From the IMG/VR virus record IMGVR_UViG_3300006931_000005, positions 1-64,000 of that record: a DNA stretch of 64,000 nucleotides. One strand, 5' to 3'. The translations under genes were made by a program, and so were the position numbers. Below, piece by piece: positions 790 to 27,431 of the stretch. The number at the start of each line of letters is the position of its first letter. Positions within the stretch are counted from its first letter, which is position 1. This stretch comes from a virus. The notes below the pieces were generated by a model. It made no database searches and was not told where the DNA came from. It saw nothing but the letters and a program-made list of their open reading frames with translations.

Positions 790-850
790 TGAAGCGTAAT
801 TGCTTCAGCCCGGCCACCGGTTTTTACCGGTGCCGGGATGAAACCATCAC
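790..850 (-). ncRNA. Long imperfect intergenic hairpin, possible RNase III-type processing site
   Basis: Minus strand GTGATGGTTTCA-T-CCCGGC-ACCGGT-AAAA-ACCGGT-G-GCCGGG-C-TGAAGCAATTAC; alternative hairpin TGAAGC-N6-GCTTCA. Confidence 0.55.
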
Positions 851-1404
851 GGGCAGGCCGCAGCAATCAGCGTTTCGGCCACGAGCTTTTTGTGCTCCTC
901 GATTGAATACCGCGCATGATCCTCCGCCTCCCCAGCCATGTATTTTTCGCCCTCGTCATCACCCTCAAATCCCCAGCATGAATCCCCTTCGATTGTCCCG
1001 CCGTCCGGGGTTTCAATCGTCGTGGTGTAGCCCAGCCAGTGCCAGTCATTGTTACACCAGCCCCGGCAGTATTCAAAATCGCGCTCGACCGCCTCCGCCG
1101 TGATTTCCTTCACCGTTGGCGTGCGGCCCAGCTTTGCGGCCAGCTTTGCCTTCGCTTCTTCGCCCAGCCCCCAGCCTTCCGCCTTGGCCTTCTTGATCGT
1201 GGCCGGGATGTCATAAAACCGGCTGCTGCTCCGGTCTGAAGTCAGAACACGTTCACCGGCCCGCTTGTCGCGCCGTTCCCAGCCCGTCACAATGCCGTGG
1301 CCATCGTGCTCCTCCCATGGGGCACCCATGAAAGGATCGTGATAGATTGAGATTCTGGCGGTGTAGCCGTCCAGCTCGAATGATTTTGTTTTAATTGCTT
1401 CCAT
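847..1404 (-). CDS. Early phage hypothetical protein (MEAIKTKSFELDG..., DSCWGF motif)
   Basis: ORF 847..1491; start moved to ATG 1404, which follows AAAAAGGAAATCT. Confidence 0.8.
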   Translation of the reverse strand: MEAIKTKSFELDGYTARISIYHDPFMGAPWEEHDGHGIVTGWERRDKRAGERVLTSDRSSSRFYDIPATIKKAKAEGWGLGEEAKAKLAAKLGRTPTVKEITAEAVERDFEYCRGWCNNDWHWLGYTTTIETPDGGTIEGDSCWGFEGDDEGEKYMAGEAEDHARYSIEEHKKLVAETLIAAACP

Positions 1405-1429
1405 AGATTTCCTTTTTGTTCTGGCGAGT

Positions 1430-1486
1430 TGAGTCTCATCAGCAGCCGCAAAACGGCTGGACGGGCTCGCGCCCGTTTCGACTTCA
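1430..1486 (-). ncRNA. Hammerhead ribozyme, type II
   Basis: Minus strand TGAAGTC-GAAA-CGGGC-GCGA-GCCCG-TC^-CAGCCG-TTTTG-CGGCTG-CTGATGA-GACTCA: intact CUGAUGA and GAAA core, GUC cleavage triplet, stems I and III closed, stem II formed by the two ends. Confidence 0.93.
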
Positions 1487-2062
1487 GCCATAAATCACTT
1501 CACCAAGGCAGGCCAGTTGCGCGAAGGCGTCAAAGCTGGTGGCGTCCGACTGGCCCAGCCAGTCGTCCCATCTTTCCCAGTCGGCGGACAGCGGGGGCGG
1601 GGTGCAGCCCTTCGGCCATTTGTCCGTGAACATCAGCGGGAATGCGGCCAGCAGCTTGGCCTTGTCCAGCTCGTAATCCTTGCCCTCCTCGTCGTCGGTG
1701 AACGAGAATTCAAACGCCTTGTAGCGCCAGCCGTGGCAACGGAGCGCGCAACCGTTGGAAGCTTCAGGAAAGTTTTCCATGATGCCGCCGATAATACGCT
1801 CCACCATTTCCAGCGGAATTTCGACGGCCAGCTTCAGCGCACCACTTTTAGCGGCTGGCGCATCATTCACGGGCTCCCATGTCACGCTGAAAACCCATTT
1901 TGCATTTGCCACGGTAGCGGCTTGATGGAAGCAATGCTCAACATGAAGATCACCCGCACCACCCTCGCTGAATTTCAAAAGGGCTTCATCCAATGTGGTA
2001 GCAAAGCAGGTACGAAGCACGCGGACTGAATCCGCCAGTTTGTAATGGTATTTTTCACTCAT
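1484..2062 (-). CDS. Early phage hypothetical protein (C-terminal DA..FDAFAQLACLGEVIYG motif)
   Basis: 192-aa ORF with AAAGGAAATCT-ATG leader. Confidence 0.85.
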   Translation of the reverse strand: MSEKYHYKLADSVRVLRTCFATTLDEALLKFSEGGAGDLHVEHCFHQAATVANAKWVFSVTWEPVNDAPAAKSGALKLAVEIPLEMVERIIGGIMENFPEASNGCALRCHGWRYKAFEFSFTDDEEGKDYELDKAKLLAAFPLMFTDKWPKGCTPPPLSADWERWDDWLGQSDATSFDAFAQLACLGEVIYG

Positions 2063-2345: not shown

Positions 2346-2373
2346 AATTTAACAGATCGTGTTAAACTGTCAA
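2346..2373 (-). promoter_or_regulatory. Sigma70-type early promoter overlapped by an inverted repeat
   Basis: TTGACA-N16-TAAATT with TGn extension; TTTAACA-N5-TGTTAAA at 2348-2366. Confidence 0.7.
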
Positions 2374-3159: not shown

Positions 3160-3345
3160 TTGTCGTGGGTGTCCATGACAATTTATGATGTCAAAAATGT
3201 CTGTCAAAAGTCCACAGAAGCAGATGCAGAGGCATTGCGTAGCATGACACGGTTTGACGGTGGCAGGATCGTCAGCCGGATCAGTGGTGAAGTCCATGAA
3301 TGGGACAGTGAAGATTTGAGTGGACGGATCGGACGTGTCAGCGCA
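3160..3345. repeat. Iteron-like array of TGTCA/TGACA/GTCCA/TGGAC pentamers with CAGAAGCAGATGCAGAGGCA
   Basis: Dense short direct and inverted repeats immediately upstream of paralog 1. Confidence 0.5.
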
Positions 3346-25400: not shown

Positions 25401-27239
25401 GCGCTCCAGCGTTTTGTTTTCCGCAACCTGAATTCCATCGACCAAGCTTCGATGGCTGTCACCCGCGAATGGAAGCTGGCGTATTATTCCGCTTCTGCGT
25501 TCAAAGAAGCCGGGCTGACGAACACGGACATTTCGCAGTTGATCGACCACATCGAGATGCTGCGTAAAAACGAATTCGAGAAAGCCATCGACGCCGGGCT
25601 GGATGCGAACACGGCCAAGGTGCGGGCCAACAGCCGGGTCGCGGATTCCGTCTGGGATTTCGTGAATAACAAGACCGGTCGCAGCGATCTTGCGGATCAG
25701 GTTATCAAGGCTACCGAGAACGACGTGTACTCCACCGTCGGTCGTGTGCCGCACGGCTTGAATTCAACGGATGAAGGCTTCCTGACCCGGTTCTCCGGCT
25801 TTAATCATTTCCTGCAATTCGTGTCCAAGGTTCGCGGCGAAGGCGGGCTCCAGAACATCGGCACCACGGCGCTGATCGGCATGATTAACATTCCATTCCG
25901 CACGACCCGTTATTTTTCTGACTTCTCGCCCTACGGCCTGCTGCGCTACGGTATCTACAAGTACCGGCTGAATCGCGGCAAGGAAAACTTCTGGAAACAG
26001 ACGTATGGCAACGCGCTTCAGGCTCGCGCCCGGCTGTACTCCGCGCTCGCGGGCACCGTTGCCATGGCCGCAGCGACCGCATGGGCGCTCAAGAGCAACA
26101 CGGCGGACGACAAGGCTGGTGACGAGGACTTCGGCCTGTACATCACCGGCAAGGGGCCGAACAACAAGGTGCTGGCCGATGCGTGGGTCAAGCGTGGATT
26201 CAAGCAGTATTCGGCAAACTTTGTTTTCGGTGGCCACATCGTTGCGATTCCGCTGACCCGTGCGGGCGAAGCCCTGATGATGCCCTTCATCCTGCCCGCC
26301 GCGCTCGATGACTATGCGTGGAAATCGAAAGAGGCGGAAGCGGGCGGTCATCCGATCAAGACTCCGATTTCATCCGCCACTGCATCACTGATCGGCGAGG
26401 CAATGTACATGACCGGCCAGTCAGGTATCCTCCAGACTTTTGGCCAGCTCCAGCAGGCGACTGAAAACGGCGGCAGCTTGGGCAAGGCGGCGGTCAAGGT
26501 CGGTGTGAGCGCGGCATCATCGACGGTGTTACCCTTCCGCCAGCTCCTCGCGTCCGTGAGCGAAATGCTTTTCGGAAGCATGGATAATTCAAGCATCAGC
26601 TCGCTGATCGCAAACCAGTTTCCAATCGTGGGCCTGCCGTTTCAGAATCCGGCTGTCAACCGCTTTGGTGATCCGATGTACGACCGTAGCTGGTACGGTC
26701 TGATCGCCCGCACTGGCGTTCCCATCGCTTTTCAGATTTCGCGTTCGCCGGAAAATGAGCGGTTGTACACGACGCTCGTGGAAAAAGGAATTTCGCCACC
26801 GCCGCTGAATCGCTCCGATCTTGAATCGAAGTACGGCGACATGACCGATCAGCAGTTCAAGCAGTTTGCTACCGTTTCAGGTCAGGCGTTGAAGCAGGCA
26901 ATCACAAAGAATCTTCCCGACCTTCAGGGCATGAGCTCGGTGGACGCGAAGAACCTGATGTTCAAGCTGGCGATGCAGGCGAACGCTCAAGCGGCCATGG
27001 CCATTGGCGTGGCTCCGCAGCCCGCAGCCGGTCAGACTGCCGCCGCAGGGTCGGCTGGTGCCGCGCCGTCGAAACAGAAAAAGGCGAAGCTTTCCAAGGC
27101 GTCTAAATCAGTCCGGTCGCTTTACAAGCTGCCGAAGATGAGCCTGTCTCCGGTCGGTAAGAAATCTCACAAATCGACCACGGCCCGGCGCGGTGGATCG
27201 CTCTACGGCGTGCAGCCACGCCACCTCTACGGCACCTGA
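16461..27239 (+). CDS. Giant polyvalent ejection protein (metallopeptidase, two ADP-ribosyltransferase-like domains, glycosylase-fold domain, nuclease-like domain, helical C-terminus)
   Basis: 3592 aa; D(D/E)FGG repeats; HESTH; HDLFGH..RGEENAW; LTHWS...RSYFG; FYHGT...GLYFT...GYDGI...VFDPKQIR; GWYD...GPKVG.FY.NL...TMDMW...LQAVLWY. Confidence 0.88.
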   Translation: MKQDDFGGIALDDPQSSDEFGGVPLAPSTSTDEFGGAPLTSPAPIQVPAQSQPMPEPIPFKNPDIIAPAPEAPSIPGVLARSAARNVLPTAGFIAAAPVGRLAGAAAGARTGALLGALVPGLGETGVSEGVGAVIGGLIGMFATGTAAATATKALQTGAADYVAPDSFLGTKSEQADMAAHPIASELGSLAVIGKPNPFNIIRAARTIGSDTGRAALADLLKTGATKGGYQEWAKTYSPEVQKSAVNVLNVAQAGGINAAFNVYDQIKSGNYSAGDLLRSAAEGALFNEPWIHAKNPATDSFDSALTPEQATEANKNLRALSPYPETGTPTNISKGIVAVPVGQRTHIIQVNGQDAAVLKHVDGADFQKAQDDAGASGWDGYFLKKDPESGNPTIYINMDHLNRQDSLFTHESTHLLEAMGLINQQQMDAVNTTYGQIKVKDADGNELPIAQEVANRYAKFNQDNSRPDQTPEDFQRELFANILQHWHETGTAPKDTFIKRAIDFISGIAGLDKSGEQHARDYIAGRFEKAPEEAGAPATADLVPAGAASAAPLPNLAFDKNPVPSQATGDVRQAEERAGAGVPPPAEGVEAGRPAVGAPPARPGAEPNAAVQQAANAYNEAVGLGPTQPHYVPVDEARARQIAAEYEKLPKTDQSPQTLASYEQLGKEIQQQWDYARNKMGITFEAWTKEGQPYANSREMVKDVRDNHHLYFFTGGDEHPLLNVKDADGLTLNDKLRAVHDLFGHAAEDFQFGARGEENAWIKHSQMFTPLAQKALTTETRGQNSWVNYGPHNYEATGARRNIKPQDRPFADQKVALLPDWVHDWKGPLNENQKAQFSVPKQAPDFTDLQWWKRDKSEPDAGARESGAPRTIAGNPRELAPGERDGKVTLTHWSNFDLHGKAIDPNFYGSGYAGEEKGRRVFKKSWLNRSYFGMKGYVKEGGLGRFKHSVTVDVNKLYDLKNDPDRLGEKVGAISDRLYPKGGTQADLTVYENLIKKAGYIGYYNTDYAVAALFDKVRVPARVSIIHSVENFKPATHKDMTPEELLTSAQQVRIKAPSGTTALRVIDSNGNTVIHNLSKFSTRNPLFNKDVVRVSPVSVKTSGVYKNHPIPVKGPVRVEPTAMFSVPKKKEFLDAGEESRNPRPNATTLPTPPTGGLKEIGDRTASKFNYDKNVLDENGAMKRFYHGTGKSDQLVKSGGFSYEKASDESLYGKGLYFTENPEIAGGTVVGADLVKRGYAGSSGAVIPVNINAKNLFDDSVGIPKQQAEKLVLKYIDKNGENDVQLNGKYGSFAAAKPVIKARESIDNSFRELIDDLAQEKSIRDLVKKYVPAGSLSGSQTIKDRLSWAFGRRSIHNSIASEQDKSAGGIRAESTGDIKQKIYQLDDLEKQSNALDRQISEAMGQVGKYSDFVKKVIENVDGPVKYGDLTDIFLQDKNEVNNFLRNSGYDGITHIGGTITGSDPHRVVIVFDPKQIRFAIGADQPFFSVPKNSSQELKKFPRTAIDILMDESVINPVRPKQVAEFDLMGDDEAAGSTSFSRVFAVADHLSRRSAQLGGGALHELNDTNAETLANTVANEAEYAINRDPKAIGWYDREMKAAMGQIFNRHPELKKDRGLQSVFKSILAITNNGQNVFANFAQADKLYTDWRTAGKVPDEENWGGKSKGAINDGLKMLNLLIEKLGTANLEKFLAKEFKVGDLKRAGFDISSENTEHMAHGSLIYGPKVGGGFYQNLIGNLNPITMDMWLMRTINRMRGTLTEPSLTALPDQIDRFIKSMKKQPDSEAIIADAKRVKQQILDGTLDVNKEKDAPGVMLTAAKNLYDDYRNSGFVKRTELNRSSKLIAEEFFGINEAPTSASERDFIRNVFVRAQEKLKAKKIDITNADLQAVLWYLEKDIYGKLGATDRRSAPASYSDAAAALNRKQLGLFDEEQGRSGDLRGAESAGPEINRFGEAGKQLTGAQALKRVSVQEAEPVPQFSVTKKLKFYEGKRFGDVKDEVVPEVPPFHPLGVEQFKQARDSIVNLAHTTGAIQARGMRINFANPDPVTAKRLGVDQNSMVARAIHAISNSDRRTANENKVLLADNILNTVKQADFVTKIQRDSTDGDNVGQYGTAFIKAYDIDGKKVWHLVQVDGNGDFITQFSWPDTEAENGRVMRSQIVQVGQRVGGLLESKVNPQAEAPTPSNFAPPTADQGEIATSGKEAQPQFSVAKEEKRAQVGGIPEVGQVRDTESISDNQAHIRERLFDGTQPVSDENTSAAWQVFDEMTGNNRSQIAGQLKDAFGGSRLLLGLYKGEVWKYARKLAVNGDDSLLRAMYDHSEQFETLAGGGASTAGSALRAEAENANDPVNRALQSAYETERENAAQSASGIDRETFTGLLKRLRSLKLTPDEVEKVVKEGKLPDGKTLEEALDELTPESKEAMALLDKYQRSQTEWLKPDVKKSIIRVIVDAAIGENKLARYDEKDFQDRLSTRLQEATVPKEVADQLAFEVWKDKAAREATKTDKAVKADAAFEQNRAQAILDKLQSDQTEVFSQARRSKVADIVKAFYKNPAASEEVRAQQIAQLEKDLVNETVKPATAKELAREAGQRKLVLEANDRLAQEKVTANEAQQTAERELAKFEEKNSGVEWLKEKGKRDQVLQAIADALKSKSPILDDPTPLVNETKAKLTALGVDEATAGKLAFEIETVRRTQFANSRVKAMENAAKSKSLRSLIESILETPYRAQSDPKWLHETAVRWFESNGLGKDQAEAAARLFDKEFKEALAQASTKVAEAELKKKVSPRTYDDLERLIRAGIFDPDKNWIDQLAAKNGWKKPSRDQMLKLQELEHKLSDPELSPEEVRDIQEQQMHVLRHVGKKRGQTLRALGESFTASLLSGIRTLTVQTSPTVMALRDLPIMALSDPKNAMNFAKAMYNSFKANAVAAFKFAWMKDAYGFHLSELEHGFNEMKRISEETDQVVNSKTSTPVAKALAYTKKLYALQRFVFRNLNSIDQASMAVTREWKLAYYSASAFKEAGLTNTDISQLIDHIEMLRKNEFEKAIDAGLDANTAKVRANSRVADSVWDFVNNKTGRSDLADQVIKATENDVYSTVGRVPHGLNSTDEGFLTRFSGFNHFLQFVSKVRGEGGLQNIGTTALIGMINIPFRTTRYFSDFSPYGLLRYGIYKYRLNRGKENFWKQTYGNALQARARLYSALAGTVAMAAATAWALKSNTADDKAGDEDFGLYITGKGPNNKVLADAWVKRGFKQYSANFVFGGHIVAIPLTRAGEALMMPFILPAALDDYAWKSKEAEAGGHPIKTPISSATASLIGEAMYMTGQSGILQTFGQLQQATENGGSLGKAAVKVGVSAASSTVLPFRQLLASVSEMLFGSMDNSSISSLIANQFPIVGLPFQNPAVNRFGDPMYDRSWYGLIARTGVPIAFQISRSPENERLYTTLVEKGISPPPLNRSDLESKYGDMTDQQFKQFATVSGQALKQAITKNLPDLQGMSSVDAKNLMFKLAMQANAQAAMAIGVAPQPAAGQTAAAGSAGAAPSKQKKAKLSKASKSVRSLYKLPKMSLSPVGKKSHKSTTARRGGSLYGVQPRHLYGT

Positions 27240-27357: not shown

Positions 27358-27431
27358 GCGGAAGTAGCTCAATGGTAGAGCCGCCGTTTTCCAAACGGCA
27401 CACGAGAGTTCGATTCTCTCTTTCCGCTCCA
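27358..27431 (+). tRNA. tRNA-Gly (anticodon TCC)
   Basis: GCGGAAG/TTTCCGC acceptor, GCTC/GAGC D-arm, GCCGT-TTTCCAA-ACGGC anticodon arm, GAGAG-TTCGATT-CTCTC T-arm, encoded TCCA. Confidence 0.96.

Follow-up and report, generated by a model that had tools for sequence, protein, structure and literature searches.

The window analysed here comprises the first 64 kb (positions 1 to 64,000) of the 73,724-bp virus record IMGVR_UViG_3300006931_000005, which carries a 90-bp terminal repeat, and it contains a complete type II hammerhead ribozyme (HH1) on the minus strand at 1483-1432. We propose, with a probability of about 0.7, that HH1 is a working ribozyme, one of four diverged paralogues found in consecutive gaps of a leftward-running operon of small genes, and that it cuts the operon mRNA. 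Taken alone HH1 adds little, being one more case of a phage with hammerheads between small early genes. The four copies together provide a clean test case for the purpose of prokaryotic and phage hammerheads: they have diverged, keep all of their stem pairs, lie 0, 0, 6 and 10 nt from a stop codon, and all have a tail able to mask the catalytic core.

Results and discussion

A complete type II hammerhead directly follows the stop codon of g_a

HH1, read directly from the sequence, begins straight after the UGA stop codon (1486-1484) of the 192-aa gene g_a, and its parts are listed in Table 1. The initial annotation had described an intact type II hammerhead with every catalytic core nucleotide and well-formed stems. 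Direct reading located each of these elements, and the assignment is borne out by covariation among the paralogues and across the wider family. The core nucleotides listed by Perreault et al. (C3 U4 G5 A6 N7 G8 A9, G12 A13 A14, the pair A15.1-U16.1 and H17; PMC3088659) are all present in HH1 and in its three sister copies; position 7, which is free to vary, is C in one of the sisters. The standard core-adjacent pairs of HH1 are G1435-C1480 (10.1-11.1), C1459-G1443 (1.1-2.1) and A1476-U1461 (15.1-16.1). The order of the parts along the RNA gives the type II topology, with stems I and III closed by loops and stem II open. When the 53-nt core of HH1 is folded in isolation, its minimum-energy structure is the three-way junction, and the isolated cores of the other three copies also adopt the hammerhead junction as their minimum-energy fold.

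The predicted cut between 1460 and 1459, 55 nt before the ATG of g_b at 1404, agrees with the sequence, as does the proposal that the 3' product would carry a 5'-OH and start with a hairpin, since the stem I hairpin begins at C1459. A leader of 27 nt separates the stem II 3' strand from this ATG. The last base of the g_a stop codon, A1484, occupies the A(-1) position that is conserved in the family (see below). An alternative start of g_b at ATG 1491, which would place the ribozyme inside the coding region, was ruled out because a ribosome-binding site precedes ATG 1404 and because homologues of g_b align from residues 2-9 of the ATG-1404 start.

It had also been suggested that stem II can extend into the UGA stop codon. 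This is true of HH1: in the fold with stem II enforced, the U and G of the stop codon pair with a C and an A past stem II, after a 1-nt bulge, and further out UGGC pairs with GCCA. As a general feature the extension was rejected, as reading of the flanks revealed it in HH1 alone and no consistent extension in the sister copies.

Table 1. Features of HH1 and of the surrounding operon. Coordinates above 64,000 refer to the whole record; HH denotes a hammerhead.
Feature	Position	Strand	Remarks
Type II hammerhead HH1	1432..1483	-	stem II 5' strand through stem II 3' strand
Stem II 5' strand AGUC	1483-1480	-	pairs with GACU 1435-1432; 4 bp, open stem
GAAA	1479-1476	-	core; directly after stem II 5' strand
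Stem III hairpin	1476-1471 with 1466-1461	-	A15.1-U16.1 pair plus CGGGC/GCCCG, loop GCGA; closed
GUC	1462-1460	-	C17 = 1460
Predicted cleavage site	1460/1459	-	from GUC position and established hammerhead mechanism; 3' product would start at C1459 with 5'-OH
Stem I hairpin	1459-1454 with 1448-1443	-	CAGCCG/CGGCUG, loop UUUUG; closed
Catalytic core strand CUGAUGA (C3-A9)	1442-1436	-	direct reading and Rfam alignment
Stem II 3' strand GACU	1435-1432	-	direct reading
3' tail	1421..1431	-	masking hairpin with core: C3-G5 with CAG 1423-1421, U7-G10.1 with CUCG 1428-1425
A-rich leader	1405..1420	-	AAGGA ribosome-binding site 1414-1410; predicted unpaired in 3' product
g_a, 192 aa, function not assigned	1484..2062	-	AAGGA before ATG 2062; weak phrog_2355 match
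g_b, 185 aa, phrog_11104 (function not assigned)	847..1404	-	downstream of HH1
g_c	771 across record end to 73527	-	directly before HH 73526-73475
g_d, 88 aa	between HH 73526-73475 and HH 73174-73125	-	from layout
g_e, 72 aa, then g_f, 95 aa	between HH 73174-73125 and HH 72577-72526	-	from layout
g_g, 63 aa	after HH 72577-72526	-	from layout
Promoter-like TTGACA-16-TAAATT	2346-2373	-	consensus match only; upstream of ribozyme operon
Promoter-like twin, identical hexamers TTGACA-16-TAAATT	3180-3207	-	upstream, same strand

The motif and its paired stems exceed chance expectation

The Rfam type II model that the initial annotation had proposed as a check, RF02276 (Hammerhead_II), aligns end to end with 1483-1428, but its score of 27.5 bits (E = 7e-4 in a 211-nt search) falls short of the gathering threshold of 37 bits. 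The three sister copies score 24.2-26.5 bits, and HH1 is not listed by an Rfam search over the whole window. The sub-threshold score reflects a model weighted towards pseudoknotted members and not the ribozyme class; only 6 of 18 relatives tested reach the cut-off.

A descriptor of our own, combining the core with the three stems, matches the minus strand of the 73.7-kb genome four times and the plus strand not at all, versus no match in 300 dinucleotide shuffles. Counted over the four copies, 64 of 64 stem positions are paired, and 10 of the 16 pairs contain compensatory changes; none of 500 shuffles and no slid register approaches this level of pairing and covariation. Mean column identity among the copies is 79%, with every stem pair kept. 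The occurrence of compensatory changes despite this drift indicates selection on the fold within this genome. Overall, the element at 1483-1432 looks like a genuine type II hammerhead, for which the sequence predicts cleavage.

A permissive Rfam scan of the operon loci, examined for other ribozyme classes, gave only the four hammerheads, and the scan of the whole window returned only a tRNA and one sub-threshold Thr_leader chance match. A covariance model of the four local copies has a weak match on the plus strand at 27081-27145 (13.4 bits, E 0.26), just upstream of a tRNA at 27358-27428, which is probably due to chance.

Four copies occupy successive gaps of one operon

Past the end of the window, the same strand carries the three sister hammerheads (genome 73526-73475, 73174-73125 and 72577-72526). 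With the 90-bp terminal repeat removed, the four copies span ~2.6 kb. Each is in mRNA sense, with a gene's stop codon on its upstream side and the AAAGGA ribosome-binding site of the following gene on its downstream side, and each is followed by a leader of the form YNGAAC..AAAGGA..AUG. The common leader of the four ribozyme units, GAAC..AAAGGAAAUCGU, is not family-wide. As a candidate family feature, the UGAAC leader motif was rejected; it occurs in 6 of 93 tails and is local to this phage.

Two promoter-like elements with identical hexamers lie upstream on the same strand (Table 1). Between the nearer one and g_a is a leader of ~270 nt with a possible 46-aa open reading frame at 2321-2181. 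The label "early or replication-side operon" is reasonable because genes for a DnaB-like helicase and an exonuclease lie nearby on the opposite strand. GenBank phages gave no DNA match to 800-2100. A search of sequencing runs with this DNA listed no RNA run, and its single real match was a rhizosphere metagenome DNA run, possibly the sample of origin.

Further structures were noted in the operon. Two hammerhead-less gaps on the minus strand, 772-846 and genome 71923-71993 (L003:894-964), share another layout consisting of a GC-rich hairpin directly after the stop codon, a 6-bp hairpin, an A-rich leader and AAAGGA. The 6-bp hairpin has the loop AAUUAC or AAUCAC, and its stem covaries between UGAAGC/GCUUCA and UGUAGC/GCUACA; a third hairpin, located behind a stop codon at genome 70183-70204, has the loop ACUUAC. 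The hairpins of the two gaps matched no Rfam family and could be protein-binding or RNase sites. Around the copy at 73526-73475 (genome 73445-73536 (-), L003:2416-2507), the upstream gene has UGGUU among its last codons, which is complementary to AACCA just before the next AUG. Such a pairing would enclose the entire ribozyme domain, and the start region would be released by cleavage; closure of this type was not seen in the other three copies.

Related hammerheads form a large viral family

We searched IMG/VR with a pattern of core bases and spacings only, in which the stems played no part, and obtained at least 120 stretches, where by a rough estimate few would be expected by chance. The covariance model, run on 80 viral loci, identified at least 101 hammerheads of the same build with 99.2% of stem positions paired; among these 101 relatives, 13 of the 16 pairs are changed on both sides. 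Family features were measured on 96 relatives re-found with our own descriptor and concern properties outside the search pattern. Stem II is 4 bp long in 89 of the 96. The base directly 5' of stem II is an A in 92 of the 96, and this also holds for 50 of the 52 cases where no stop codon covers that base. Loop I, 5 nt long with the consensus UAANG, begins with U in 91 of the 96.

The upstream stop codon lies -3 to +6 nt from stem II in 80 of 96 relatives (83%), compared with 3.5% at random positions, counting only stop codons of upstream frames that are open for at least 60 codons. In 21 cases the phasing is UAG with G as the first stem base, and in 10 a UAA or UGA ends on the conserved A. The initial annotation had inferred that terminating ribosomes could modulate folding, which an abutting stop codon would permit; tight packing of phage genes together with the conserved A 5' of stem II explains such a flush stop codon equally well.

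The genes flanking related hammerheads are small, with medians of 84 and 96 aa, and at least 62 of 76 downstream genes lack a Pfam family; 2 of the 76 are ArdA. By tblastn, the operon and the 80 hammerhead-bearing loci have no genes in common. Several of these loci contain two to four hammerheads between small genes. Three or four of the same build occur at L021:620-2630 (+), L016:8427-9239 (-) and L012:662-5758 (-), and in L021 the first three ribozymes are each followed by a single ~80-aa gene and the fourth by a 429-aa gene. An 81-nt near-perfect palindromic hairpin at L009:3526-3606, on a related viral contig, gave a spurious microRNA-family match on both strands.

No hammerhead was found within 5 kb in seven viral loci that carry a g_b homologue (31-62% identity over the best aligned segment), and in L005 the gap upstream of this homologue is short and plain. 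The ribozyme is thus not needed to express g_b, and the ribozymes are accessory to the genes.

Loop I does not pair with the 3' tail

A pseudoknot between loop I and the 3' tail is found in the majority of type II hammerheads, where it is typical and not obligatory (PMC3088659). Reading of loop and tail revealed at least four consistent pairs in none of the four copies. Complementarity between loop I and the tail in the 96 relatives equals that of a shuffled-partner control, which indicates that these relatives also lack the pseudoknot. The interaction absent here is of the kind that speeds most described type II hammerheads. A reverse-Hoogsteen loop-loop contact has been described for hammerhead types I and III (PMC6155905); by analogy, the conserved U of loop I and the A 5' of stem II resemble its partners and may form such a contact.

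The 3' tail can mask the catalytic core

When HH1 is folded in its context, the minimum-energy structure pairs the CUGAUGA strand with the tail, replacing stem II. All four local copies can form this core-tail helix, with 4+3, 6, 5 and 5 bp. The local copy with CUGACGA has the tail UCGUU, and a copy with CUGAUGA has UCAUC. Among 94 unique relatives, 42 have a core-tail helix of at least 5 bp starting at C3, versus 6.1 expected from shuffled tails. Relaxing the requirement to a 4-bp helix over C3-A6 gives 46 cases, in 42 of which the free core position 7 is paired with the adjacent tail base; counted per 85% cluster, the combinations are C-G in 14, U-A in 13, U.G in 3 and unpaired in 4. This covariation between position 7 and the tail is a testable hint of a second, selected fold in these ribozymes. 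We did not find the masking helix in the searchable literature on hammerheads.

The masked fold and the active core are mutually exclusive. In predictions that leave out tertiary contacts, the masked and active folds of uncleaved HH1 are equally stable (both -29.3 kcal/mol), and in the other three copies the masked fold is 1.4-3.4 kcal/mol more stable than the active one. With the masked fold equally or more stable, cutting may be slow or conditional. The tail of HH1 has an alternative partner in the end of g_a, with which it extends stem II. The predicted 3' products of all four copies consist of the stem I hairpin, the core-tail hairpin and an unpaired ribosome-binding site.

Proposed role of the four ribozymes and alternative explanations

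We propose that each transcribed copy would cut itself after GUC. The upstream message would then end ~25 nt past its stop codon with the stem III hairpin and a 2',3'-cyclic phosphate, and the downstream message would start at the stem I hairpin, carrying a 5'-OH. Once cut, the two halves would be joined by no more than the 4 bp of stem II. By refolding onto the CUGAUGA strand, the tail could set the upstream piece free; the remaining leader would comprise two hairpins and then an accessible ribosome-binding site. In this way a long transcript would be converted into single-gene or two-gene mRNAs with protected ends, which would make the stability and translation of each gene independent of its neighbours. 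There is precedent for the activity of such elements: in prophages, hammerheads clustered around single genes are cleaved both in vitro and in E. coli (PMC3088659), and in vivo cleavage has been shown for three type II hammerheads of Desulfovibrio vulgaris (PMC8782182). The biological role of prokaryotic and phage hammerheads has been stated to be open (PMC6155905).

The main rival to constitutive cutting is a conditional switch, in which the tail would mask the core and hold it off, ribosomes at the stop codon or at the downstream start would shift the folds, and cleavage would report translation of the neighbour. The data fit this reading and do not require it, and we regard it as unlikely. 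The presence of the masking helix in all four local copies and its maintenance by covariation over ~30 sequence clusters speak for it, yet refolding after the cut explains the helix equally well. The stop codons lie 0-10 nt from stem II in the four copies and near it in most relatives, which also speaks for a switch; tight phage gene packing predicts a flush stop as well, and the A before stem II is kept where no stop codon covers it. The competition of the HH1 tail bases between the last codons of g_a and the core, at equal predicted energy, is a further point in favour, but the other copies do not share an extension of stem II into coding sequence. In its broadest form, the tail and the CUGANGA strand would be a selected switch in a large pseudoknot-free phage subclass of type II hammerheads, and with a stop codon at the 5' edge cleavage would depend on ribosome traffic, a proposal we advance only tentatively. 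If it were true, the phage could set the ratio and timing of processed and unprocessed early messages.

We consider it improbable that the four units, each a ribozyme with its leader, are intergenic cassettes of a selfish or neutral kind that spread through duplication or recombination and give the flanking genes no expression benefit. Such cassettes would fit with the hammerhead-less loci around g_b homologues, with flanking genes that are small, mostly without a Pfam family and unrelated between loci, and with a leader common to the four units and not to the family. Conservation of every stem pair by compensatory changes at 79% mean column identity argues against them, as does the placement of all copies in mRNA sense exactly between stop codon and ribosome-binding site. 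It is far less probable still that the segments between ribozymes are joined into circular or spliced RNAs, whether through ligation by the ribozymes or through a host ligase of the RtcB type that would use the 5'-OH and cyclic-phosphate ends. Each segment would have the right end chemistry, and GACU in stem II of HH1 is complementary to GGUC in stem II of the 73526-73475 copy, but other pairs of copies lack matching stem II strands. Moreover, a type II cut falls between two closed hairpins with only 4 bp holding the ends, which would disfavour religation, and Perreault et al. sought such products in similar clusters and found none (PMC3088659). We retain processing of the operon mRNA by working hammerheads as our preferred reading.

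Comparison with known systems

HH1 resembles the RF02276 consensus in its catalytic core and permuted topology and aligns with it over the full length. It differs in having a loop I of 5 nt, compared with ~10 in the model, and a stem II of 4 bp, compared with 2; in place of a pseudoknot signal it has the conserved first U of loop I and the A 5' of stem II. RiboJ-type synthetic insulators consist of a hammerhead and a downstream hairpin placed before a ribosome-binding site. The layout proposed here is similar in that self-cleavage would remove the upstream context, a hairpin follows and the ribosome-binding site is open, whereas the phage element is natural, has type II topology and would form its second hairpin from the ribozyme's own core strand.

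Few papers treat type II hammerheads. Those of Desulfovibrio vulgaris lie near phage-like or hypothetical genes, two of them ~300 nt apart, and are active in cells as detected by cyPhyRNA-seq (PMC8782182). That cleavage was observed in another organism and in other sequences.

The closest parallel is provided by the prophage clusters of Perreault et al. (2011), in which hammerheads flank single genes or short blocks, for example in a triple arrangement around ardA in Agrobacterium tumefaciens (PMC3088659). A term search of that article gave no instance of "stop codon", and wherever "tail" or "alternative" appears in it, a core-masking fold is not the subject. As in those clusters, the hammerheads described here are in mRNA sense and occupy successive gaps of a phage operon of small, non-conserved genes; the proposed role, conversion of a long transcript into gene-length mRNAs, is the same, and ArdA is also encoded directly downstream of 2 of 76 related ribozymes. 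The present case differs in its genome and in that all four copies are of type II. Hammerheads between the genes of phage operons have been known since 2011 and are common, and the present genome is a new member of this group.
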